A stretch of 46,227 bases of DNA from a bacterium (GTDB lineage: Bacteria; Zhuqueibacterota; Zhuqueibacteria; Oceanimicrobiales; Oceanimicrobiaceae): contig JBHHXT010000019.1 of NCBI GenBank assembly GCA_046757165.1, positions 1-46,227 on the forward strand, written 5' to 3'. Below, piece by piece: positions 1,372 through 17,800 of the stretch (positions are counted from its first letter, which is position 1; each line of letters starts with the position of its first letter). The translations under genes and the position numbers were made by a program. The notes beneath the pieces were generated by a model that saw only the letters and a list, made by a program, of their open reading frames with translations, had not been told where the DNA came from and searched no databases.

Positions 1372-2119
1372 ATGAACCGCAATTTTCCACTGTTGATTGC
1401 GGGGCTTTTCATTTCAATCGTTTGCTGCACTCGAGGGTTTGCCCAGAATGGTGCGGGTCTGGTTCAGCAGGCGGGTCCGGTGACCGCAAAACTGACTCCG
1501 GACGAGTATGTCCTGAACGACACCACGCTGCAGGCGCTGCCGTTCAGAGACTCACCCGAAACCACTTACCAATTGCTTCCCGGTAGCGCGACGCAGGAGT
1601 ATCGGGGCGACAACCTGCTGCACGTCAGAGGCAGCAGGCACGATGAGCTGTCGTACTCCTTCGAGGGCTCTGATATTCGCAGCGATTTCACCGGGCACCC
1701 CTTGTTCAGATTCATCCCGGAAGTCCTCGCGGCCGTCCGCTTGCAAAGCACGCCGGGCATTGAACAACATGGCGCCGCTGTGTTCGGGCAAACCCTGCGC
1801 CGGCCAGCGGGCACCCTTTGCTGTCACCCTGAGGGCTGAAAGCGACCGCCACGCGCCCGGACACGAGCACCGTTACGGGGCCTTCTCTTACGGCTACAGC
1901 AACCTGCTTCTCATCGCCGAAGGCAGGGCCGGCGCAAACTTTTCCTATCTCGTGGCTGGCGAAAGAGAGCATTTCAGCGACCGCCACCGCAAGTTCTGGC
2001 CTGGCTTCCGCTTTGGCGGGCCGGATAACCTCGCCGACGCAACCGGACTCACTCTGCGGGGAGATAATCGCCACCCACAAGGGGTGGCGGCTACGAGTGG
2101 CGAATCAACACCCACTTGA
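1372..2119 (+). pseudogene. TonB-dependent receptor fragment (signal peptide and plug), frameshifted and truncated
   Basis: Signal peptide, then plug-like LLPG...LHVRGSRHDELSYSFEG. Coding sense continues in another frame near 1815 (FAVTLRAESD...FSYLVAGERE) and ends in a REP pair near 2070, far short of a full barrel. Confidence 0.65.
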
Positions 2120-2325: not shown

Positions 2326-3525
2326 TCACCTGACAATCTCCAGAATCTTCAATCCTCCCAGGCCGTTGGCGACAAACACCACCTCCCCATCCGCTGCCAC
2401 AAAGTTCGTCGACCCTTCGAATCTTGCGCTGCCCAGGATGTCACAGCCAGAGTCTGTCATCTGCGCCACCTGAAGACCATCGGTTCCATTGGCAAGAAAG
2501 ACAAACCCGTTTGTGACCGACACGCCATTGGTCACGCCATTGTCAGGAGCCGGAATGGTGGTCACGACGGTTTCGCTTGCCAGGTCGAGGGCCAGCATGC
2601 CACAGCTCCCCGCAGAGATGTAGACCCTGTCGCCGTCGACATCCATTTCAGCTTTTCCCTGAAAGTCGTTTGTACAGCCCAGATCTATGGTCTTAACAAA
2701 GGCGCAGGTTGTGCGGTTGACCAGATGGAGCCGGGTGCCGGTCCCTTCGAGCACCAGAACATAGTCCCGGTGTTTTTTGACGGCTTTGGCGCCGGGAATG
2801 GCAATGGTCTTCGAAATGTTTGTGCCGTGATTCTGGAAGATGATCAGACGTCCATCCGTGGTTCCGGCAGTGACGAAGACAGTCTCGTCAAAACAGGCGA
2901 CGTCATTGGCATTGAAACTCGGCAGGTCCACCCGCGTGGTTTTCCTGGTGATCACGCCGCTGCGGAGGTGGATGACCTCCAGACACGCGGGCGTGGCAAA
3001 ATCGTCGTTTTGGTCACTGTCTGTCGCTTCTCCCAGAAAGAGCCTGTTTTCATTTTGCCGGGCGATCGTGATATCCGTGTCCAGGAACAGGGCCTGTGAT
3101 CGCAGTTTGGGTCGCCTGATGTGGTTGATGTCGAAAATCTCCACTCCCCCCCGGTAGGCGTCGTTTTTTGTACTGTAAGAGACATAAGCGTGCTTCTTGT
3201 CGAAGGTCACATGTGTGGCGTAGAGGCGGTGACCCTCCAGGGTCGGCGGGGGAACCTCTGCGCGCAACATGAGTCTCATCTTGCCGGCTGCCAGTTTCGT
3301 TGCCTGTTGGATGGTGTGTTTTGGTGATGGTTTTATCGTGGAGGTTGAATTGGAACGGCTCAGCTCCACGCTTACATTCTCCAAAACCTGTACGCGCTGA
3401 TTCAGGATGGACTCGTCGTTTTCAATGACAATCCTGTCGGTCTCGACCGGCGCCATGGTTTGGTTGCCGCAAGCTGCAAGGAAGAAAGGTAGGGATAAGA
3501 AGAGAGATCGATTTGTCGTGAGCAT
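2326..3525 (-). CDS. LVIVD-repeat beta-propeller lipoprotein (399 aa)
   Basis: Start reassigned to ATG 3525 (AAGGAGG RBS upstream). Lipobox FLAA-C. Repeats AYVSY..GGVEIFDI, VYISAG..GMLALDL, VFLANG..GLQV, VFVANG..GLKILEI. Confidence 0.75.
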   Translation of the reverse strand: MLTTNRSLFLSLPFFLAACGNQTMAPVETDRIVIENDESILNQRVQVLENVSVELSRSNSTSTIKPSPKHTIQQATKLAAGKMRLMLRAEVPPPTLEGHRLYATHVTFDKKHAYVSYSTKNDAYRGGVEIFDINHIRRPKLRSQALFLDTDITIARQNENRLFLGEATDSDQNDDFATPACLEVIHLRSGVITRKTTRVDLPSFNANDVACFDETVFVTAGTTDGRLIIFQNHGTNISKTIAIPGAKAVKKHRDYVLVLEGTGTRLHLVNRTTCAFVKTIDLGCTNDFQGKAEMDVDGDRVYISAGSCGMLALDLASETVVTTIPAPDNGVTNGVSVTNGFVFLANGTDGLQVAQMTDSGCDILGSARFEGSTNFVAADGEVVFVANGLGGLKILEIVR

Positions 3526-3694: not shown

Positions 3695-4717
3695 TTAGAA
3701 CCACTGTCTGCGCACAAACACCGCTGCCTGTGTTTCAAGAATGCGATCCCAGGCAGGTGCTTTCTTCGGCACAATCTCCACGATGATATAGCGCTGTACC
3801 TTGCCAAATCGATGGCGCAGCTCCGCTGGCTGTGGGTTGGTTGTGGGATAGATTTTCCGGATGAGGCCCCGCGTTTGGTCTCCATTGGCAAAATCGATCC
3901 TGGCCTCATCTCCTTCGCGAATTGAATTCTCTGCAGACCCGGGGAAGTACGCTTTGATGTAATTCCGTTCTCGATTCACGATTTTCAGGATGGACTCGCC
4001 AGTAGTCACGCCTTCGCCTTTTTGCTTGTAGACGGCAGCTACCACCCCCTCTGTCACCGCCGACAGGGTGAGCATGGGCATGAGCGGTGCTTGGCTGCTA
4101 CCGCCAGCGAGAATCATTTTTTGCTTTTCATAACTCCTGAGCGCGCGCAACGCCGTTGCTAACTCAGTTCGAGCTGCCTCCAGGTCGAAGCGGGCATTTT
4201 GCACTTGTCGTGCCAGGTTGGTGAATTGAGCGCGCGTGATGGAGTTTATGGCCAGCAGCCGTTGTGCGCGGGCGTATTCGTCCTCGAGCTCCCTGACCTG
4301 TGTATTGTGGCGATTGACTTTTTGTTGCAAGAGGTCGATTCGACCTCGCAGGTCAATGATTCTGCGCTCGGTGGTGTAATAAGCACCGCTCCGTGGGGAA
4401 TCTGAACCTGGTTGGCCCCTCAGAGCTGTGTCCAGAAACACCAGCACTTGACCGGCGGCGACCGTGTCGTTGACACTGCACGTTATGGCGGTGATGGTAC
4501 CCGCGGAGGTGGCCGCCACAAAGAATGTCTCGGCTTCCAGGAATCCAGTCCCCTCGAAGAGGAAGATGGAGCGATAGAGCCAGCCCAGGAGCTTGAGCGC
4601 GATCAAACACAGGCTAGCCACGTAAAGATATTTGCCCCACGGTCGCTTCTTTTTGCCGGTGCTGTCACTGGCTCTTGTAAACGTCTGTCCACGATTCCGT
4701 AACCGTTTCGAGCGCAT
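3695..4717 (-). CDS. HlyD/membrane-fusion-protein family periplasmic adaptor
   Basis: N-terminal TM; lipoyl half-motifs (AGTITAITCSVNDTVAAGQVL; EGVVAAVYKQKGEGVTTGESIL) flank a long coiled coil; beta-barrel C-terminus. Confidence 0.8.
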   Translation of the reverse strand: MRSKRLRNRGQTFTRASDSTGKKKRPWGKYLYVASLCLIALKLLGWLYRSIFLFEGTGFLEAETFFVAATSAGTITAITCSVNDTVAAGQVLVFLDTALRGQPGSDSPRSGAYYTTERRIIDLRGRIDLLQQKVNRHNTQVRELEDEYARAQRLLAINSITRAQFTNLARQVQNARFDLEAARTELATALRALRSYEKQKMILAGGSSQAPLMPMLTLSAVTEGVVAAVYKQKGEGVTTGESILKIVNRERNYIKAYFPGSAENSIREGDEARIDFANGDQTRGLIRKIYPTTNPQPAELRHRFGKVQRYIIVEIVPKKAPAWDRILETQAAVFVRRQWF

Positions 4718-4720
4718 TGT

Positions 4721-6826
4721 TTACCTTTCAGCCAACGTCTGATAGCGGTGGTAATCATGCACGGCGAAGCCGGCAAAGTCAGGTCTGGCTCTCAGCTTGC
4801 TCGCTAGTTGTTGTTTGAGCTTGTTTAGATTCTTCTCTGCCGGAAAGTCAGTTGTGTTTATGCCCACGACAAAGGGTCTGCCCTGTTCGGCCATGAGTGC
4901 GAGCGTCCCCTGAAGGATGGCCAGCACCCGTTCAGAGGTTTTGTGATGATAAGCCATCAATGTCACGACATCAACCGCGCGGATGATTTCTTTCAGCGCC
5001 GAAACATCTACTTTGTGGTAAAACGTGGGGAGATCGATCTCCAGAGGCAGGGTCGCGTTGTTTTGTGACAGCAGGAGGCGCGCGGCGTGCACCGTCTCAG
5101 CCAGGCGTTGCAGGAGGTTCCGTTTTGCGCCCGGCCACTCGCGCAGAGCATGGGGCTCGATGTCGAGGTGAACACCATCAAAGCGTGCCTCCGCTGTGGC
5201 GTTTTCGTTGTACGTCAGAATAAAATTGATGCGCTGGAACAAAGGTTGGCGGTTTTTGGGATGCACCCACCGGGGGTCTCCGAACAGCGCGGAGACTTTG
5301 ATGCCGGAGGCATGCAGCCGTCTGATCAACCCTTGCATTTGTAAGAGGCGCTGCCCTGATGCGATCAAATCGCGACTGACGGAGAGGTAGACCTGATTGA
5401 TCGCTTTCGACCTGCAGAACTCGACAAACGCTTGCCGCGAGGCCTTTTCTGCGAGCAACGGCGAGACCTTCCACAACCAGACACCATTTATGCGCGCCGG
5501 CGCGGCTTCGGTCGCTGCCGAGGATGGGACGACCGGCATCTCGCGGGGCCAGTGCAGACCCGCAAGGTAAAGCAAGCGGTAGTAAACTCGATCGCGCTCA
5601 TAAAGATTCAACTGGTATTGCAACTGATTCTTGACCACTTCCGCTTGCTGCAAGAGCAGGTTTGCCCGGTCGAGCCCGCCGGCATCGACTATCTTGTACA
5701 AATTCGAATGCTCGACGCGTTGTTTTTCCTGGTTCCACTCGATCAATTTTCGCATGTCCTCGATCTGGGCGGTGAGAAGGAGGTACTGGTCGCAGGTTTG
5801 TTGCACCTGCTTCTCGAGTTCAGTTCTGGCTATCTCAGCCTCGATCTCCCAGGCGTGGGCGCGGGTGGTGAAGCGTTCGCTCTTGCGAGCACTGAGAAAG
5901 GGAAAGAGGAGCGGAAACGAAAGGCGGAGACCAAACTCCGTGCCTGACCCGTTCACCCCGCCGGCGCTTTGGCTCTGGCCTCTGAAATTGAGGCCGACGT
6001 AAGGCGCAAAGCGCAAATCCTGATAGCGCGCGACCGTCGCCTGACCCGCAGCCACGCGGGCACGCGCCTCGCTGACGTGCGCTCGAGGGCTGTTGGCCAG
6101 CGCCATTTCCAGCATGCGCGCTTCGTCGAGACTCGGATGGGCGAGCTCCAGGTCGTGCACGCGAATTTGGTTGTCTTTGAGCTCAAAAGAAGCAGCCAGC
6201 AGCGTTTTCTGTTTTTCATACCGCCTTTGATAATGGTCATGAAGAATGCTGAAATGAATGTACTGTTTCTCCACATCCAGGTAGCTGTTGAGCAGGCCTT
6301 CCTGGTAGCGATAGCGTGTCTTTTGCATCGCCATCAACGATAAGTAGATATCCGTAAGCTTGCTGTAGTGGTCCACCCTGGCACGGCTGGTGAGCAGGTC
6401 GAGGTAGTCGGTGCGAAATTGCAGCAGAGCCTGGCTTTTTGCATCCCCGAGCTGTGCATTCGCGATGTCGAGGTCTGCCTGCGCCTCATCGAGTCTGCCG
6501 GCGCGGACTTTCCACAACTGCAGCAGATCCTGGCTCAACCGCACCGACAGGGCGGTTGTGGCGTTGAGCTCGTCGTCGCTCAGGTCGATGGCGTCGGTGC
6601 GGATGCGGTAGCTGGCGCTGATCTCCGGCCAGTATTGCCAGCGGGCGGCGGACAATCTGAGGTGCAGCGCGCGTTTTCTTTGCCAGGCGGCAGCCACCGG
6701 CCGGGATTGCCGCCAGAGGCGCTGTTCCAGGTCATGGAAGCCGTACGGCTGCTGAGCCAACGCATCTGAAATATTTACCACAATCAAGCTGCCGACCAGC
6801 GCCAGGTATTTGCATCTGTTTCGCAT
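4721..6826 (-). CDS. TolC/OEP-like outer-membrane protein fused to a C-terminal GH18-like TIM-barrel domain
   Basis: Signal peptide; ~430 aa of helical OEP-like repeats with beta segments (YWPEISASY, FGLRLSFPL); PSSAATEAAPA linker; then GVWLW...INQVYLSV...LHASGIKVSALFGDP...FDGVHLDIEP. Alternative start 6841. Confidence 0.65.
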   Translation of the reverse strand: MRNRCKYLALVGSLIVVNISDALAQQPYGFHDLEQRLWRQSRPVAAAWQRKRALHLRLSAARWQYWPEISASYRIRTDAIDLSDDELNATTALSVRLSQDLLQLWKVRAGRLDEAQADLDIANAQLGDAKSQALLQFRTDYLDLLTSRARVDHYSKLTDIYLSLMAMQKTRYRYQEGLLNSYLDVEKQYIHFSILHDHYQRRYEKQKTLLAASFELKDNQIRVHDLELAHPSLDEARMLEMALANSPRAHVSEARARVAAGQATVARYQDLRFAPYVGLNFRGQSQSAGGVNGSGTEFGLRLSFPLLFPFLSARKSERFTTRAHAWEIEAEIARTELEKQVQQTCDQYLLLTAQIEDMRKLIEWNQEKQRVEHSNLYKIVDAGGLDRANLLLQQAEVVKNQLQYQLNLYERDRVYYRLLYLAGLHWPREMPVVPSSAATEAAPARINGVWLWKVSPLLAEKASRQAFVEFCRSKAINQVYLSVSRDLIASGQRLLQMQGLIRRLHASGIKVSALFGDPRWVHPKNRQPLFQRINFILTYNENATAEARFDGVHLDIEPHALREWPGAKRNLLQRLAETVHAARLLLSQNNATLPLEIDLPTFYHKVDVSALKEIIRAVDVVTLMAYHHKTSERVLAILQGTLALMAEQGRPFVVGINTTDFPAEKNLNKLKQQLASKLRARPDFAGFAVHDYHRYQTLAER

Positions 6827-6834
6827 TTGCCCAT

Positions 6835-8136
6835 CTACCATTGTATGTACCTCTGTCTGACTTTCACCGGTGCAAACGGATCGCGATTGGAGCTCCTCAA
6901 AAAGAGCTCCTGAAAGTAAGCTTTTAGGCGGACGAGTTTGAGAATGATCTTGAACGGATTGACGAGCGGCAGAAAAGGCAAGAGTTTGGCAAACTCTTTT
7001 TCGTTCTTATCCAGAATCAGAATGAGCACCAGCTCCAGCAGCTCCGAGCAAAAATAGAGAAAGAAATTGACACACATGATCGGGCCAACGTAGTCCGGAT
7101 AGTTCCACGCGAGATCGAGCAAATAACAAGCCGTAATCACAGCGAGTACGAGGTGGAAAAAAAGAGAATCTACGAAGGCCACAACGTCGATGAACCTGAA
7201 GCCTTTGGAGAACGGGTTGAAAACATCTTTGTGTTTTCGGATCCGGTTCTTGATCATATTGCGGTCCCACCGTGACCGTTGCTTCATCAATCGAAACATC
7301 TCGGTCGGCGCGTTCGTCAGGCAGAATGCCCGTGGCTGAAACTTGATCTTGTAGCCCTTTTTACGGACTCGAATCGCCAGGTCCGAGTCGTTGCCCGGGC
7401 CCGGTTCGTGGCCGCCAAGTCGCTCGAGACCGATCAGCTCGCGCCGGAACGCGCCAAACGCGCCCGAGATAATCGGCAGGGTTCCGAACAGCGACCGTAC
7501 GCGGCGCCCCATCGAGATCGTGAACATGTATTCGATTTTTTGTAATGTGGTCAGCAAATTCTCATCGCCATTTCGAACGCTCAGATTTCCCGAAACGCCG
7601 CCGACCTTCGGGTCTGCGAAGGTTGAGATGATCAGAAAAATCGCATCGCGGTCGAACGTGGTGTCAGAATCCACGAACACCACGAACTCGCCTGTGGCGA
7701 ATTTGAGACCGTAGTTTAGAACCGCGGATTTGCCGGCGCGCTCGGAGAAGCGCAAGTACTTCAGGTCGGCGAACATGCTCGCCATTTCGCGGCAAATCGT
7801 GGGCGTGCGGTCCTCCGAGCCATCATCGACGATGATGATCTCGAGATTTTTGTACGTCTGCTCATGCAGCGAGCGAATCGTCCACGCGATGGTGTCTTGC
7901 TCATTCAGGGCCGGAATGATAATCGACACGCGCGGCGGGTGCTCGGTCAGTTTACGCATGAAAGCGATCTCTCTGTGAGACTGAGGCCGCGGCCACAGCT
8001 CATATACGAAAATGATGAGGTCCGTCAGAACAAAGCGCGGAAAATCAAATACCAGGTAGAACCAGAAAATGCGCAGCAGCGTTGCCGGCGGCATACTCAG
8101 CAAAAAGTTCCAGGTGTCAACTACGACCTCCATCAT
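6835..8136 (-). CDS. Processive family-2 glycosyltransferase (PgaC/IcaA/hyaluronan-synthase-like)
   Basis: IIPALNE, DDGSED, GKS, FVDSD, SGAFGAFR, GNDSD and QRSRW (QxxRW) motifs; N- and C-terminal TM helices. Start taken at ATGATG 8136. Confidence 0.9.
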   Translation of the reverse strand: MMEVVVDTWNFLLSMPPATLLRIFWFYLVFDFPRFVLTDLIIFVYELWPRPQSHREIAFMRKLTEHPPRVSIIIPALNEQDTIAWTIRSLHEQTYKNLEIIIVDDGSEDRTPTICREMASMFADLKYLRFSERAGKSAVLNYGLKFATGEFVVFVDSDTTFDRDAIFLIISTFADPKVGGVSGNLSVRNGDENLLTTLQKIEYMFTISMGRRVRSLFGTLPIISGAFGAFRRELIGLERLGGHEPGPGNDSDLAIRVRKKGYKIKFQPRAFCLTNAPTEMFRLMKQRSRWDRNMIKNRIRKHKDVFNPFSKGFRFIDVVAFVDSLFFHLVLAVITACYLLDLAWNYPDYVGPIMCVNFFLYFCSELLELVLILILDKNEKEFAKLLPFLPLVNPFKIILKLVRLKAYFQELFLRSSNRDPFAPVKVRQRYIQW

Positions 8137-9613
8137 CTTGCAGCCTCTCCCACAATATTTGCGTATCCTCAACTTTGGTCAGATCGTAGAGCGCGAACCG
8201 CAAGGGGACGCGCACCCGGAATGTCTTTTCGAGCCGTTCTGCCAGACGTTTATAGGCAATTTGGGTTCGCTCGGGACTGGTATTCAAGAAAAGGATCAAA
8301 ATGTCCCCGTTGGGCAAATCGGTAAACAGATCCGTCTTGCGGTAAGTTTGCCTTACCACATCCGCAAACGCCCTGCGAAACTGCCGGGAGTGGATCACGA
8401 GGGTTTCTCCCAGGCTGTCGCGTATACTCTGTAATTCAAATTTGGACAGCGTGGATGGCACCCGGTACCGCTTGCATCTGGCGACCTCCAGCTGCAGATA
8501 GTCCAGGAAGACCTCCCTCTTATAGAATCCCAACTCCTTTTTCAGGATATTGATGAGGCCGAATCCGGGAAGCACACCCTCTTCAGCAGCGCGATAACCT
8601 TCCTGCGCGAGGGTGTAGGCGCTAATCTGTTTGACCAACGCCTCCTCTGGCGCAAAAGTAGTGGCGCACGCCAGGCAAAAGCAAGAGAGCCGCGGGTCAG
8701 AAAAGTTGTGACCGCAGTCTCCACACCACAACACCTCTGAAGGTTTGTCATAATCCACCCCGATGTGCCGCAGCTCATTGTGACACTTCGGGCAGATGAG
8801 TTTTTCGCCACGGGCAAATTCAGACTCCCGACCCACGAAGGCACAGCGAAAATGGTGCACCGTCGCCTCCTCGTTGATGTTCAACGAGTTACAGTGCGGA
8901 CACAGCTCGCGAAAGTTGATCTGTGTATGCTCACAATGGGGGCAGACGTTCACGCGGTCGACCAGTTTTGCGCTCAACACCGTCGCCTCTTGCAGACTTT
9001 CCAGGTGCTCCAACTCCACGCCCGCGCGCACCTGAAACAACAACCGCACCAGGGGATAAGAATACCCAACCTTGGCACAACGGTCCCGGACTGGCTCCAA
9101 AACTGAGTTGGGCCGTGAATAGAGAAAGCGCAGAACGAGAACTTTCTTCAATCCGAGCTCACCGAGCGACTTTGGCAGCTCGACCAGGGAGTCGAGCTTT
9201 TCGGTCATGTGGGCAAATTTGTTGTGCACGATCTCTTCAAACAGTGTGTAGGAAACCGGCCATGGCAACGCTTCGTCAACCACGCCTGCCAGCGACGTCG
9301 CTTCGCACTCGTGGAGCAACAAGATGGGTTTGAGGAACAGTGCGGGGCGTGACTTGATGGCGCGCATGGCCTTCCATCCCCACGCCTCGCTAAGGACATG
9401 CAAAATGAGATAATGTGCGGCGCTCAAACTCCGCGTCAACCGCACGTTCCTGAAGTATGGCATGTCCTCACGCAGCCTTTTCAGCAAACCATAAACTGCC
9501 TCGTTTTTCCCCTCAGCCAGCAACCCGATTCTGATGCGCGGCTCAGCCCGCTCCTCCTCCTGAGAAATGATCCTGACCACCCCGGACCCGGGCCTTTCCG
9601 AAATCACCGTCAC
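8117..9613 (-). CDS. Signalling protein: degenerate REC-like region, TackOD1 Zn-ribbon domain, degenerate GGDEF domain with RxxD
   Basis: CPHC..CPHC..HFRC..CPKC..GVDY..CGDC..CLAC pattern. C-terminal REVFLDYLQLEVARCKRY...YRKTDLFTDLPNGDILILF has PNGDI at the GGDEF position and RKTD at the I-site position. Confidence 0.75.
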   Translation of the reverse strand: MTVISERPGSGVVRIISQEEERAEPRIRIGLLAEGKNEAVYGLLKRLREDMPYFRNVRLTRSLSAAHYLILHVLSEAWGWKAMRAIKSRPALFLKPILLLHECEATSLAGVVDEALPWPVSYTLFEEIVHNKFAHMTEKLDSLVELPKSLGELGLKKVLVLRFLYSRPNSVLEPVRDRCAKVGYSYPLVRLLFQVRAGVELEHLESLQEATVLSAKLVDRVNVCPHCEHTQINFRELCPHCNSLNINEEATVHHFRCAFVGRESEFARGEKLICPKCHNELRHIGVDYDKPSEVLWCGDCGHNFSDPRLSCFCLACATTFAPEEALVKQISAYTLAQEGYRAAEEGVLPGFGLINILKKELGFYKREVFLDYLQLEVARCKRYRVPSTLSKFELQSIRDSLGETLVIHSRQFRRAFADVVRQTYRKTDLFTDLPNGDILILFLNTSPERTQIAYKRLAERLEKTFRVRVPLRFALYDLTKVEDTQILWERLQDDGGRS

Positions 9614-9790: not shown

Positions 9791-10392
9791 TTGCAGGTTA
9801 GTGATTACGGGGATCTCAGGATGGGAGATAACGACACTACTTGGGAGGCACCGCCAGAGCTGCTCAAATTTCTGAAAGATGGTCCTGCGCCTGTCTATGT
9901 GGGATTCGGCAGTATGTCGGGTGGAGAGGCGCATGAAGTCACACACACTGTCGTTGGAGCCTTGATCGGATCGAAACAGCGAGGGATAATCGTTACCGGC
10001 TGGGGAGGACTCTCAAAAGTCGAGGTTCCGAAAACCATTTATGTTGCCGAGCATATTCCTTTTGATTGGCTTTTTCCACAGGTGGCTGCAGTTGTGCATC
10101 ATGGCGGCGCTGGAACACTTGCTGAAGGGCTGAGAGCAGGGAAACCACCGTCGTATGCCCATTGGCGGGTGATCAACCCTTTTGGGGAGAAGTTGTTGCA
10201 GGATTGGGGGCGGGTCCGAAACCTGTTTCTTTGTACCGGCTCACGAAAAAGAATTTGGCCAGAGCAATACAAATTGCTGTTGAAAATGAAAGGATGCGTG
10301 ACTGTGCAGTGAAAATAGGTAAGAAGGTAAGATCCGAGAACGGGGTTGAGAGAGCGGTGAAGCTAATTGATGAATATTTGTCAGCCCAATAA
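9791..10392 (+). pseudogene. GT1 (sterol/UDP-glucosyltransferase-like) C-terminal fragment, frameshifted
   Basis: PVYVGFGSM and HHGGAGT..GLRAGKP, then a 1-nt loss near 10148; continues TVVCPLAGDQPFWG in the other frame. The N-terminal domain is absent. Confidence 0.75.
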
Positions 10393-13506: not shown

Positions 13507-14220
13507 TTAGCTCAAATAAACCAGGACAAACAACACTGGCCAGATGGCGACGACAAAGTACCAGTACAAACCACAGAGTTCAGCCAGCGTGTCGCTGCGG
13601 GTGGAATAGGTCCTGGCTAAAGATTTCTTCAGGACGATGAGCAGGAACACCATCGCACCCGCCACATGCAGGCCATGACATCCGATCAGGGCATAAAATA
13701 TTCCGCCATAGGTGCTGGAGGTCAAAGTCAAACCGAACCGGATCAGGCGAACCCATTCGGAGCCTTGAATCAAGAGAAACGTGGCCCCTAAGCCGGCGGT
13801 CGCAATCAACCATTTGGTCATGGTCATGGACAGGTCTGCCCGGCTGGCCCGCATCGCTCGATTCATCGTGAAACCGCTGGCAAGCAGAAAAACCGTATTG
13901 ACCAGGGTCACCACGAGGGGAAGCATGGGTTGACCCGCAGGGGGCCATGTTTGGCTGTTGGCCCGCAGGATGAGAAAAACGCTGATCAGCCCGCCAAAAA
14001 ACATCACTTCCGCGCCGATGAACATGAGCAGCCCCAGAACCCCCTTGTTGACCGGCGCTTGCTGTACCGAAGCGAAACCGGGGTCTGCCGCGCCCTTCAA
14101 ACCATCGCTCTCGAGGCCGGAACTATGGCCATCATTTATCTCGGGCGTTGTCATTCTGGTCGCCATCGCTGCTGCCAATATTTGGGTTGATGTGTTTTCA
14201 TGTTTAGCGATTGTAGACAA
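13507..14220 (-). CDS. ctaE: Heme-copper oxidase subunit III (second paralog)
   Basis: GLLMFIGAEVMFFGGL, NTVFLLASG, FYALIGCHGLHV, LYWYFVVAIW. Confidence 0.88.
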   Translation of the reverse strand: MSTIAKHENTSTQILAAAMATRMTTPEINDGHSSGLESDGLKGAADPGFASVQQAPVNKGVLGLLMFIGAEVMFFGGLISVFLILRANSQTWPPAGQPMLPLVVTLVNTVFLLASGFTMNRAMRASRADLSMTMTKWLIATAGLGATFLLIQGSEWVRLIRFGLTLTSSTYGGIFYALIGCHGLHVAGAMVFLLIVLKKSLARTYSTRSDTLAELCGLYWYFVVAIWPVLFVLVYLS

Positions 14221-14485
14221 TATCTGGTATGAGCGAAATGGTCATCCCGATGAAGAGCAAGACCGGAATGATGGCAATGTAACGAATCAGTCGCTGCTCG
14301 AATTTTAGATGCATGAAATAGACGGCCACCAGTCCCGCTTTGACGGCAGCGACGAAAAAAATAAATGCCACTGTCAGTGGCGGTGAAAATGGCAAAAGAA
14401 CCGCTCCGACGCTGACAAACAGCAAAAGAAGCAGCCACGCCCAGACAGCGACATAGTTCGGATGCTCATGTTGAGTGTGTGACAT
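14204..14485 (-). CDS. ctaF: Cytochrome c oxidase subunit IV (CtaF/CyoD-like)
   Basis: Three TM helices; KAGLVAVYFMHLKFE signature. Confidence 0.85.
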   Translation of the reverse strand: MSHTQHEHPNYVAVWAWLLLLLFVSVGAVLLPFSPPLTVAFIFFVAAVKAGLVAVYFMHLKFEQRLIRYIAIIPVLLFIGMTISLIPDIVYNR

Positions 14486-14594
14486 ATTCTAACTCCTTTC
14501 GGGTAAACTTCGGCAGTTGGCTGTTGGCCTCGAGCTTGCTGATAAGGTTATTTGTCATCTCTTATTTTTTGTTCAACTGCTCAACAGCGGCCCC

Positions 14595-15185
14595 TCAATA
14601 CGAAAGATAAAGCAACGGAAACAGGAAAATCCAAACGACGTCAACGAAATGCCAGTACAGCCCTGCGTATTCCACCCGCTGCTGCGTTCTCGGCCAGAGC
14701 GTGCCTCTGACGGCCATAACGAAGAGCGCAAAGTTTGCGATAATGCCTGCCAGGACATGCAGGCCATGCAGCCCGGTCAAGGCGTAATAAAAGGCCCAAA
14801 ACATGCCGGACAGCGGCGTGAATCCCTGAGAGATTTCTATCGAGTATTCAACCGCTTTGACGCCCAGGAATGTCACTCCGAGTAAGACCGTGAACAAAAG
14901 GTAGGTCCGGGCCGACTTCCTATCTTCTTCGTCAATCGCCTGAAAGGCTTTTACCATGGTCAAGCTGCTGGTGAGCAGAATGACGGTATTGAAGGTGCCA
15001 ATTGCTGTGCTAACATGCTGAGCCATGTCAGCCCACGTGCCGGCACTGGCCATGCGGTAGAGAATATAGATCGCCAGGAAGCCGCCAAATACCATGATTT
15101 CAGAGGCTAAGAACCACCAGAGCGCGATTTTGCCTGACGGCGCTTGAGTTTGCGGATATTCCTCAACGGCGGAAACGGTGCCCAT
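14595..15185 (-). CDS. ctaE: Heme-copper oxidase subunit III (first paralog)
   Basis: WWFLASEIMVFGG, NTVILLTSS, TGLHGLHV, GLYWHFVDVVW. Confidence 0.92.
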   Translation of the reverse strand: MGTVSAVEEYPQTQAPSGKIALWWFLASEIMVFGGFLAIYILYRMASAGTWADMAQHVSTAIGTFNTVILLTSSLTMVKAFQAIDEEDRKSARTYLLFTVLLGVTFLGVKAVEYSIEISQGFTPLSGMFWAFYYALTGLHGLHVLAGIIANFALFVMAVRGTLWPRTQQRVEYAGLYWHFVDVVWIFLFPLLYLSY

Positions 15186-15243
15186 TCTGCTATCTCCCTT
15201 GTCTTAACATTAACGGTTCGGGTTTATTCTTCTTCAAGCTATG

Positions 15244-15322
15244 TCTGGTTCCAACGCTCTGCGTCCCTTTACTTGACGCGGAGCGTCAAATACTGGTTCC
15301 CACGCGGAGCGTGGGAACCAGA
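15244..15322. repeat. REP-like palindrome cluster between oxidase subunits I and III
   Basis: CTGGTTCCCACGC-GGA-GCGTGGGAACCAG (15293-15321), TTGACGC-GGA-GCGTCAA (15273-15289) and a partial copy at 15244. Confidence 0.7.
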
Positions 15323-15368
15323 CCGTGTAGGTGCGTGATCATCATACACCAAATCCTGCACCGAAGGA

Positions 15369-17102
15369 CTAGGCCGCGGCCGCGGTTTTCTTCGGTTCAT
15401 TCTGCGGCTGCCAATCCCGGCCATTGCCAGGCGAACTGTACTCGTACGGGCCATGATAAACCCTGGGCAGGGTAGCAAAATTGCCATGAGGGGGCGGCGA
15501 AGGCGCAGCAGCCCACTCCAGCGTGTTCGCCTGCCAGGGATTATCCTCCGCTCGTTTCCCTTTGAACAGGCTCCAGAAGAAATTGATCACAAAGGGAATC
15601 TGCCCGATGAAAAGCAGAATCGCGGCGATGGTGATGAGCTGATTGATCGGGCCAAAGGGCTTGAGAAAGTCATATTGCAACGGGTTGTAAATACGGCGCA
15701 TGTGGCCACCCATGCCCAGCACGAACATCGGGATAAACGTCAGGTTGAAAAAGATGATCGTAAACCAAAAATGGATTTTCCCGAGCCCCTCGTTCATCAT
15801 GCGGCCAAACATTTTCGGGAACCAGAAGTAGAGCCCGGCGAAGCCAGCCAGAAGGGCTGACGGAAAAAGGGTAAAATGAAAGTGAGCGACGACAAAATAA
15901 GTATCGTGAATGTAGATATCCACCGGCGCCGAGCCATTGAATATGCCTGTCACCCCACCGACGATGAACGTCAGAATCGTGCCGAGCGCAAAGAGCATCG
16001 GTGTGGGAAAACGCAGTGAACCGCCCCATAGCGTTGCCATGAAAGCAAAGATTACGATGGCAAATGGAACCGAGATCAGGATGGTGGTAATGCTGAAGGG
16101 CATCACCAACCGTGGGTCTATGCCGCTGACGAACATGTGATGCGCCCAGACCACGAAGCTGAGAACCCCGGCCACCAGGACTGAGTAGATAATGGTTTTG
16201 TACCCGAAAATCGGCTTGCGAGCAAATACTGGCAAGATTTCGAACAAAGCGCCCAGGCCGGGCAACAGGATCACATAAACCTCCGGATGCCCAAAAAACC
16301 AAAACAGATGCTGCCACAACAACGGGTCCCCGCCTCGATCAGCGATGAAGAACCCGGTGCCAACTGTACGGTCCAGCAGGAGCAAAATCGCCCCCGCGAT
16401 AAGCGGGCCGACGGACAGCATAAAAAGAACCGATGCAGTGATCTGCATCCAGACCATCAGGGGCAACCGGTACATCGTGAGGCCGGGGGCCCGCATGGTG
16501 ATGGTGGTAGTGAGGAAATTGATGCCGCCCATCAGGAAGGAGGTAAATTCCAACGCCAGTCCCAGTATCCAGAGATTCAGGCCCCAATTCACTCCCGTGA
16601 GCACGGGGTCTGCTGATAAGGGTGCGTAGCCCGTCCAACCAGCGGCCGCCGCACCCCCCGGGACGAAAAAGGAGGCGATCATCAACACCGAGCCGAGAAA
16701 GATAGTCCAGAAAGACATCATGTTTAGCCTCGGAAAGGCCATATCCGGTGCGCCAACCATCAACGGCAGCAGAAAGTTACCGAAGGCGCCCAGCAACAAT
16801 GGCATGGCGACGAAAAACACCATCAGGGTACCGTGCATCGTCACCAGTGCGTCATAGAATTCCGGCGGAATGATGCCGTTGACCACCGTCGGTTCCGGAA
16901 TCCAACCGGCACCGGGGACCGCAGTTTCAGGCCACGCGAGCTGCCAGCGCATGTAGTAGGCCAGCAGACCGCCAACGACAGCCATAAACAGGCCGAGAAA
17001 CATGTACTGCTTGGCAATGACTTTGTGGTCGATCGAAAAAATGTACGTGCGAAAAAAACTCAGCTCCTTGTGCTCAGCCGCGTGACGGACCTCGTCAGCC
17101 AT
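15369..17102 (-). CDS. ctaD: Heme-copper oxidase subunit I, A1 type, with atypical K-channel
   Basis: TMHG, PDMAFPRLN, WFFGHPEVY, WAHHM, AHFH and MRR: all six His ligands and the active-site Tyr are present. Confidence 0.96.
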   Translation of the reverse strand: MADEVRHAAEHKELSFFRTYIFSIDHKVIAKQYMFLGLFMAVVGGLLAYYMRWQLAWPETAVPGAGWIPEPTVVNGIIPPEFYDALVTMHGTLMVFFVAMPLLLGAFGNFLLPLMVGAPDMAFPRLNMMSFWTIFLGSVLMIASFFVPGGAAAAGWTGYAPLSADPVLTGVNWGLNLWILGLALEFTSFLMGGINFLTTTITMRAPGLTMYRLPLMVWMQITASVLFMLSVGPLIAGAILLLLDRTVGTGFFIADRGGDPLLWQHLFWFFGHPEVYVILLPGLGALFEILPVFARKPIFGYKTIIYSVLVAGVLSFVVWAHHMFVSGIDPRLVMPFSITTILISVPFAIVIFAFMATLWGGSLRFPTPMLFALGTILTFIVGGVTGIFNGSAPVDIYIHDTYFVVAHFHFTLFPSALLAGFAGLYFWFPKMFGRMMNEGLGKIHFWFTIIFFNLTFIPMFVLGMGGHMRRIYNPLQYDFLKPFGPINQLITIAAILLFIGQIPFVINFFWSLFKGKRAEDNPWQANTLEWAAAPSPPPHGNFATLPRVYHGPYEYSSPGNGRDWQPQNEPKKTAAAA

Positions 17103-17116
17103 ACTCTCCTCCTCAT

Positions 17117-17800
17117 TTAGTTGTCATTATCTGCAGGTTGCCAGTTCTCCTGCACCCAACTGGCGTAGGCTTGCTCAGAATGAACATAAAGAAAGCCGCG
17201 CATGGTGTAATGGCCATATCCACACAACTCGGCGCAAGCGATCTCATACTTGTCGGTTTCGGTCGCCTGGAACCAGGCTTCGATTTCACGGCCAGGCACC
17301 AGGTCCTGCTTCAGGCGCAGAACCGGGACAAAAAAACTGTGGATAACATCCTGGGAAGTGAGAATAAGCTTCACCACTTTGTTGGCCGGCACGTGAAGGT
17401 CGTTCTCCAGCGTGAGATCGTCGTCGCTACCAAACATGCCGTCCGGCCCGGGGTAGGTCATGATCCAGTTGAACTGCTTGCCCTCCACTTGAATGGTCAC
17501 CGCGCTGACTGGCATGTCCCCTTTGATTTGGTCATAGGCTTTCGCGCCGGCAAAATCAATCCACAGGTCGAACACGAGCACGATGGCAGCTGGAATCAAG
17601 ATCCAGCCCGTTTGTGGCCACGCCCTGCCGTGCACAAATTTCGCCCGCTGCCCCTCTCGACGACGGTACCGAAACAGAAAATAGAAAATCAATCCCTCGC
17701 CTAGCAGAAATCCGATTCCGACGATCCAGAAGATCAGATAGAACACCGAGTCAATCTCACCGCCAAAGGTCGAGATGTTCTGCGGGAACAAATCAAACAT
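17117..17800 (-). CDS. ctaC: Cytochrome c oxidase subunit II (CuA), no fused cytochrome c
   Basis: Two TM helices; DVIHSF and CAELCGYGHYTM CuA motif. Confidence 0.95.
   Translation of the reverse strand: MFDLFPQNISTFGGEIDSVFYLIFWIVGIGFLLGEGLIFYFLFRYRRREGQRAKFVHGRAWPQTGWILIPAAIVLVFDLWIDFAGAKAYDQIKGDMPVSAVTIQVEGKQFNWIMTYPGPDGMFGSDDDLTLENDLHVPANKVVKLILTSQDVIHSFFVPVLRLKQDLVPGREIEAWFQATETDKYEIACAELCGYGHYTMRGFLYVHSEQAYASWVQENWQPADNDN

Follow-up and report, generated by a model that had tools for sequence, protein, structure and literature searches.

Four open reading frames (ORFs) lie between positions 3695 and 9613 of the window, the 46,227-nt stretch of a 6.1-Mb genome analysed here. All four, and the features described within them, are on the minus strand, and the gene order is A-B-T-C. 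Gene A (8117..9613) encodes a 498-aa MxdA-family protein, gene B (6835..8133) a 432-aa MxdB-like processive GT2 synthase, gene T (4721..6841) a 706-aa fusion of an outer-membrane efflux protein (OEP) with a glycosidase-like TIM barrel, and gene C (3695..4717) a 340-aa MxdC-like membrane-fusion protein (MFP), a periplasmic adaptor. With B starting at ATG 8133, A and B overlap by 17 bp (20 bp if the in-frame ATG 8136 is used). T starts at ATG 6841 and overlaps B by 7 bp, and 3 bp separate T from C. The close packing of the four genes described in the initial annotation was confirmed, and its domain calls, namely TackOD1 with a degenerate GGDEF domain, a QxxRW GT2 synthase, a TolC-like channel fused to a hydrolase, and a HlyD-like adaptor, hold by Pfam, structural models, and the QRSRW motif of B.

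The family of gene A was traced into Gammaproteobacteria, which led to MxdA of Shewanella oneidensis MR-1 (AAN57153.1, 26% identity over 401 aa, E 6e-34). MxdA AAN57153.1 itself matches TackOD1 (PF18551, E 4.7e-71) and, weakly, GGDEF in Pfam. PF18551 is found in both proteins, and the whole domain string is common to them. By sequence, A is a full-length MxdA homologue, and MxdA is a pseudo-receiver joined to a TackOD1 zinc ribbon and a degenerate GGDEF domain. The AlphaFold model of A (predicted local distance difference test, pLDDT, 90.7; predicted template modelling score, pTM, 0.83) consists of a receiver-like domain, zinc ribbons, and a GGDEF fold. The receiver-like fold (approximately residues 27-140, 9194..9535) resembles many receiver domains with VIA Z 11-12. 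Column counts place His72 where many homologues carry Asp, so this domain is likely unphosphorylated. The multi-CxxC TackOD1 domain (residues 160-335, 8609..9136) matches PF18551 with E 3.8e-56, and its Cys/His and RHIGxDYD columns are 95-100% conserved in the family alignment.

Pfam returned no GGDEF match for this copy of A. The corresponding part of the model matches the GGDEF domains of WspR, PleD, and PelD, and that of FimX matches residues 354-498 with VIA Z 11.0. The I-site motif R425-K-T-D428 (8330..8341) has R382 upstream, and all three charged residues (R382, R425, D428) are common to A and MxdA. The family alignment holds 152 rows, 151 of them with letters at the I-site; RxxD is present there in 133/151, and an intact GG(D/E)EF-type motif in 0/151. 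Since the catalytic position of this copy reads PNGDI and the motif is intact in no row, A was ruled out as an active diguanylate cyclase. In MxdA, residues 358-362 (NVDEF) align close to strand 1 of the GGDEF fold, far upstream of the RVTD I-site, and may represent a decayed DxDxF motif of that fold. The true GGDEF position of MxdA comes after RVTD and reads TRDGL. NVDEF has been likened to GGDEF (PMC13713693). The function of TackOD1 is described as obscure (PMC5847659). The domain alone is not diagnostic of the cluster: five other TackOD1 loci in related genomes (L131-L135) lack an adjoining GT2 or adaptor gene. These represent a second TackOD1 class with an apparent receiver N-terminus, and in L131 and L135 an HDOD-like gene was seen nearby by eye.

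Gene B shows the motifs DDGS, DxD, QxxEY, SGAFGAF, GND-SD, and QRSRW (285-289), and residues D104, D155, D157, D249, and Q285-R-x-R-W289 are invariant in 74 rows. Only three clear hydrophobic segments are present, which amounts to few membrane helices. The GT2 of the mxd-type locus L109, a proxy for S. oneidensis MxdB, aligns with B at 32% over 377 aa (E 1e-49) and scores 168 bits, versus 134-136 bits for PgaC or IcaA. One homologue with 42% identity to B carries the name MxdB in its source. The best NCBIfam match is PgaC/IcaA (TIGR03937), at 163.9 bits versus a cut-off of 422.3. B was therefore ruled out as a poly-N-acetylglucosamine synthase of the PgaC/IcaA type, being far below the cut-off and having no recurring pgaA/pgaB/pgaD or icaD/icaB neighbours. 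NodC is also matched (E 3.2e-29). The nearest synthases, 74% identical at best, come from records titled Calditrichaceae or KSB1, and quick trees group B with copies from Calditrichota, Nitrospinota, and Thermodesulfobacteriota, apart from both the mxd-type clade and PgaC/IcaA. Among 300 gammaproteobacterial genomes sampled, 7 GT2 homologues were found, none leading to MxdB, and metagenome contigs scanned with a published mxd promoter primer gave 0 matches. A suspected connection with named Vibrio fischeri genes was given up, as no paper on it turned up.

Gene T carries two OEP repeats (Pfam, E 1.7e-17) and, by eye, an apparent signal peptide. Its residues are numbered here from ATG 6826 (701 aa), and the mean pLDDT of its model is 89.3. 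The initial annotation had proposed that the N-terminal part of 4721-6826 is an OEP, and that part (residues 28-426, 5549..6745) does model as a TolC fold, with a Foldseek match to TolC of E 1.9e-13 and VIA Z 23.5-24.7 to VceC, CusC, OprN, CmeC, TolC, and MtrE. VceC is the closest (Z 24.7, rmsd 4.6, 378 aligned). With two OEP repeats and the TolC fold in its monomer model, T belongs to the TolC/OEP family. A low-confidence linker (residues 434-442) leads to the TIM barrel (residues 443-701, 4724..5500), recognised from the model and from sequence and fold matches. The barrel contains H553-L-D555-I-E557-P and M624-A-Y626; H553, D555, E557, P600, Y626, and H690-D691 are conserved, and D555xE557 is present in 35/41 barrel sequences. 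Because TolC C-termini are periplasmic, the modelled barrel would sit outside the tunnel.

The barrel matches the GH18 family weakly (E 7.8e-5, 22.9 bits versus the Pfam cut-off of 29.6), and where GH18 has DxxDxDxE the barrel sequence is D-G-V-H-L-D-I-E, His taking the place of the middle Asp in 39/41 sequences. The low score and altered motif rule out GH18 membership, and the barrel is GH18-like only. The closest solved sequence is PDB 10yv (E 9.3e-13), labelled 'putative GH97', which is absent among the listed fold matches. The top fold match is Clostridioides difficile Cwp19 (Z 20.5, rmsd 3.5, 250 aligned), which acts on peptidoglycan. GH5, GH18, and the PgaB hydrolase domain follow at Z 17-19, and the spore cortex-lytic enzyme SleL at 17.8. 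Unnamed stand-alone look-alikes of the barrel, in Bacillota and Actinomycetota, were found in the Atlas.

Gene C belongs to the HlyD families by Pfam (HlyD_D23, E 6e-9) and has one predicted N-terminal membrane helix. A profile of the C family finds the MFP of L109 (E 1.4e-17) and the third genes of L109-L121 (E 1e-17 to 6e-29), and it matches the presumed BgsB with a probability of 97.9%. Direct BLAST of C to L109-L121 was weak, with E 1e-6 to 2e-4 in 6/13 loci.

Distribution was examined in the best 80 of 563 genome loci, a sample that leans to close relatives because only the best were kept. A was seen in 74/80 loci, C in 69/80, and an OEP in 66/80. Among the 67 loci showing both A and C, 62 have an OEP gene. 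Of the other five, L032 turned out to carry an OEP gene after all, L045 shows a rearranged layout, and the remaining three are situated close to contig ends. The order is T-C-A-B in 47 loci and A-B-T-C in 15, and the barrel is fused to the OEP in 39/66. The expected synteny was borne out, as the four-gene set is co-conserved in many phyla and the order of the window also occurs on a plasmid of Aeromonas caviae. There (L097, NZ_AP024139.1, 6647-12469) the operon lies on a 29-kb mobilizable plasmid, and near-identical proteins exist in Stutzerimonas, which together argue for recent horizontal spread. Three-gene forms are found in Plesiomonas, Photobacterium, Roseibium, Aminobacter, and L109-L121. 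Closer to the window, 25/41 related genomes have TackOD1, and exactly 14/41 have the full fusion. These are the 14 with the strongest TackOD1 match, and the two lie on the same contig. Of the 14 fusion copies, one is interrupted by a stop and another is divided between two contigs. Barrel-fused forms are found in the clade of the window as well as beside the mxd-type clade, so the four-gene layout could be the ancestral one, the root being unsure.

The statement that the cluster has no ATP-binding cassette (ABC) or resistance-nodulation-division (RND) pump held up. No pump gene adjoins it within the window by ORF list and Pfam, and no pump family recurs in the 80 loci. Pfam scans of 29 same-strand flanking genes identified one ABC ATPase (L068), and 28 flanking genes scanned together contained no RND, major facilitator superfamily (MFS), or MacB protein. 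An ABC-motif regular expression was matched in 0/80 loci, though this search is weak because it missed the L068 ATPase found by Pfam. No porin or tetratricopeptide repeat (TPR) gene recurs in the loci either. A TviB-like UDP-GlcNAc dehydrogenase gene lies inside or beside the operon in 19/80 loci (L038, L041, L044, L046, L049, and others), a family call made on one scanned member. The fused barrel is present in 0/19 of these loci, and the 17 of them tagged in the tree form one clade. This branch hints at a uronic-acid polymer. In 4 Bacteroidota loci the gene after the synthase encodes a CotH-kinase/lamin-tail protein, and 5 loci have a weak deacetylase-like gene close to the synthase; L058, L084, and L094 are among these CotH/deacetylase loci.

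The described system closest in gene content is mxdABCD of S. oneidensis. MxdA shares the TackOD1 and degenerate GGDEF domains as well as R382 and RxxD with A, and in close MxdA loci the GT2 and then the MFP follow the MxdA gene. At L109, genes for an A protein of 462 aa, a GT2 of 444 aa, an MFP of 351 aa, and a 129-aa protein follow one another, the first product being 76% identical to MxdA; this layout matches that described for mxdABCD. The window differs in that T stands between B and C, whereas the mxd-type loci examined have no linked OEP or barrel. B also falls in a different subclade from the mxd-type synthases, and the small fourth gene of L109 is without a homologue in the window. 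That 129-aa gene, mxdD by position only, is treated as accessory; it has no tblastn match in the window's own genome and none in the other loci compared. The initial annotation had put the system forward as a candidate undescribed one, which does not stand for A, B, and C, since they belong with mxdABC. Its question of a match to a described exopolysaccharide locus is therefore answered in part: A, B, and C are relatives of mxdABC, but literature searches turned up neither the linked OEP nor the fusion of that OEP to a glycosidase-like domain. No paper was found on either in an mxd-type locus, although subscription journals or supplements could hold one.

The proposed conduit also has precedents: synthase-MFP-TolC assemblies have been proposed for BgsA-BgsB-TolC (PMC13438883) and XcsAB-TolC (PMC12430437, PMC8892547). 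In Sinorhizobium meliloti, the BgsBA mixed-linkage glucan requires tolC, and a tripartite complex has been proposed while an indirect role of TolC was kept open (PMC13438883). BgsBA with TolC resembles the window in its GT2 synthase, its HlyD-type adaptor homologous to C, and its activation by c-di-GMP; BgsA differs from B in having seven predicted membrane helices and a C-terminus that itself binds c-di-GMP, and tolC lies outside the bgsBA operon (PMC13438883). Identity between B and the presumed BgsA is only 21%. The cyanobacterial XcsABC-TolC cellulose model, from Maeda 2018 as described in PMC12430437 and PMC8892547, likewise combines a synthase, a HlyD-like adaptor, a glycoside hydrolase, and a TolC-like channel, but its cellulose synthase bears PilZ, its endoglucanase is separate, and tolC is outside the operon. 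The model is reviewed as being without experimental validation (PMC12430437, PMC8892547). The loci examined here hold the gene content of the Bgs/Xcs tripartite model, with synthase, adaptor, and OEP genes present and no pump gene at the loci. PgaABCD/IcaADBC and Pel resemble the window in their short GT2 of similar size, periplasmic hydrolase domain, and degenerate-GGDEF receptor (PelD). The cluster departs from PgaABCD/IcaADBC in that B is below the PgaC/IcaA cut-off and branches apart, and in having no PgaA-type porin, PgaD, or deacetylase gene. What is new is a dedicated, operon-encoded TolC-fold channel, often barrel-fused, with no conserved pump nearby. We place the cluster with the Mxd kind and propose that it operates as in the Bgs/Xcs tripartite model.

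For the regulatory side, published work reports c-di-GMP binding by MxdA and the inability of mxd mutants to form three-dimensional biofilms (PMC7666153, PMC3691769, PMC13713693). A cyclase census was made in the genomes of 50 of the 80 loci, sorted by record title into 21 outside and 29 inside Bacteroidota/Balneolota, counting GGDEF domains at E <= 1e-25 in genomes that may be incomplete. GGDEF domains were detected in 21/21 of the former versus 0/29 of the latter. The R382+R425+D428 triad was kept in 20/21 genomes with GGDEF domains and in 0/29 where none were found. The window's own genome has 8 GGDEF matches, 6 of them with an intact motif by pattern. Sequence evidence thus makes c-di-GMP control of this copy likely, and the earlier assignment as a synthase-dependent polysaccharide locus with likely c-di-GMP control is supported. 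Two alphaproteobacterial copies of A are without RxxD, one of them with a receiver domain recognised by Pfam. The 29 Bacteroidota/Balneolota genomes, with no diguanylate cyclase detected and with an eroded I-site, still keep the operon, and those copies may therefore respond to another signal.

Since A, B, and C are mxd relatives and T is a TolC-like channel, the locus likely directs a surface polysaccharide under c-di-GMP control through a channel of its own. We consider it probable, if by no means settled, that the GT2 makes a surface or biofilm polysaccharide upon binding of c-di-GMP to A and that the chain leaves via the cluster's own adaptor and TolC-like channel. The first step is well supported: c-di-GMP from the genome's cyclases would bind the I-site of A, whose GGDEF domain has no catalytic motif, and A would activate B. 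B would then build up a chain with beta linkages, which most likely includes N-acetylhexosamine, and thread it across the inner membrane; its few membrane helices suggest that it may need the adaptor helix as a partner. C would bridge B to trimeric T, and chain growth, not ATP or proton force, would drive export. We infer that the synthase stands in for the pump, here as in Bgs and Xcs. In the least secure step, the barrel on the periplasmic C-terminus of T might trim escaped chain or set chain length.

Several observations weigh against this picture. Linked OEP genes are missing from the three-gene forms in 13/13 loci of L109-L121 and also from L098-L101, so the channel gene is dispensable in cis. 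A, B, and C are only approximately 20-32% identical to their mxd-type counterparts. One test, in which L130 stood outside the group, rejected monophyly of all A-linked synthases (p-AU 0.033). When L130 was regrouped inside, the A-linked synthases formed one clade (SH-aLRT 94, unstarred), a regrouping done after seeing the tree, with a smaller row set and a simpler model. L130 (NZ_CP149879.1, 4839-7147) is a Sinorhizobium medicae GT2-MFP pair that groups with alphaproteobacterial family members, and a TackOD1 gene was not found in the stretch examined. RxxD alone survives in 10/29 genomes without a detected cyclase, and the contrast between triad and cyclases is one single lineage split. The barrel can be assigned to no one family because Cwp19, GH5, GH18, and the PgaB hydrolase domain all match its fold, and, if outside a sealed tunnel, it could not reach the chain within. 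Neither for this locus nor, in the text consulted of PMC3691769, PMC7666153, and PMC13713693, for Mxd has a polymer been identified. Even in the BgsBA and Xcs systems it has not been proved that the chain goes directly through TolC (PMC13438883, PMC12430437).

An explanation that keeps the export model assigns the barrel to peptidoglycan, which it would remodel so that channel and adaptor meet across the wall. The best fold match to Cwp19 (Z 20.5), the match to SleL (17.8), and the stand-alone look-alikes in Bacillota and Actinomycetota all favour this role, as does the placement of peptidoglycan at the AcrA-TolC junction (PMC8892547). Yet GH5, GH18, and the PgaB hydrolase domain lie within approximately 3 Z units of Cwp19, and 27/66 OEPs have no barrel at all. 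Barrel absence also tracks the UDP-sugar dehydrogenase (0/19), pointing to polymer chemistry, but 17 of these loci form one clade. We regard a peptidoglycan role as unlikely. A different objection concerns the conduit itself. Adaptors and OEPs normally need a pump, and other OEP genes exist in this genome, so C and T might serve an ABC, RND, or MFS transporter encoded elsewhere, exporting some protein or small product that the polymer requires, with the chain taking a different exit; an indirect TolC role was kept open for Bgs (PMC13438883). Against this, C is linked to B in 69/80 loci and retained in the three-gene forms, the cluster is accompanied by no pump or cargo gene, not even on the Aeromonas plasmid, and no porin or TPR gene recurs in the loci. 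A distant pump seems to us comparably doubtful.

The product could also be smaller than a long exopolysaccharide, with B making a short oligosaccharide or glycolipid, as NodC does, for release by the adaptor and channel. Its match to NodC (E 3.2e-29), its three clear hydrophobic segments, and the suitability of TolC channels for small cargo fit such a product. PgaC/IcaA outscores NodC for B, however, and no acyltransferase or deacetylase recurs widely, the weak deacetylase-like family being confined to 5 loci. The mxdA and mxdB mutants, moreover, lose aggregation and biofilm structure (PMC3691769). A short product is accordingly quite improbable. Returning to export of a polysaccharide through the dedicated channel, a broader version of that reading can be offered tentatively, as one we would not yet expect to hold in full. 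The cluster may be a self-contained, pump-free machine spread across many phyla, in which an Mxd-family synthase, switched by TackOD1-GGDEF, pushes an N-acetylhexosamine-containing polymer through its own adaptor and a TolC-like trimer whose three barrels, of an unnamed family, act as editors. The three-gene operons of Shewanella and Vibrionaceae would then be reduced forms borrowing the general TolC, and the Bacteroidota copies would answer to another signal.

Around the cluster, a possible accessory gene (2326..3525, minus strand) begins 169 bp downstream of C and encodes a 399-aa predicted lipoprotein with an LAAC lipobox by eye. Its Pfam scan was without a match. Homologues in 11/80 loci adjoin or sit within the cluster, and longer ones with DUF4114 occur in Bacteroidota/Balneolota copies. 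Counts of promoters and terminators resembled those in shuffled sequence (6 vs 3.4 +/- 1.8 and 8 vs 9.4 +/- 3.4, respectively). Divergent from gene A, 9791-10312 (plus strand) encodes a 173-aa EryCIII-like GT1 glycosyltransferase fragment, probably a remnant. Overlapping short ORFs at 1372-2119 (plus strand) resemble, by eye, a broken TonB-dependent receptor gene, the first piece being without a Pfam match. Genes for cytochrome c oxidase subunits (I, two subunit III-like, and IV-like, by eye) at 13507-17800 (minus strand) are unrelated to the cluster.

The Bgs and Xcs papers (PMC13438883, PMC12430437) leave open whether a TolC-type channel itself conducts polysaccharide, because in those systems tolC is unlinked and has many roles. 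The channel described here is dedicated and co-inherited, so the question becomes addressable with four genes. The locus suggests an exit route for the long-known Mxd biofilm polymer and links TackOD1, whose function is obscure, to a protein reported as a c-di-GMP receptor. It also points to a possibly new polymer and to an unnamed glycosidase-like family with a candidate substrate nearby.

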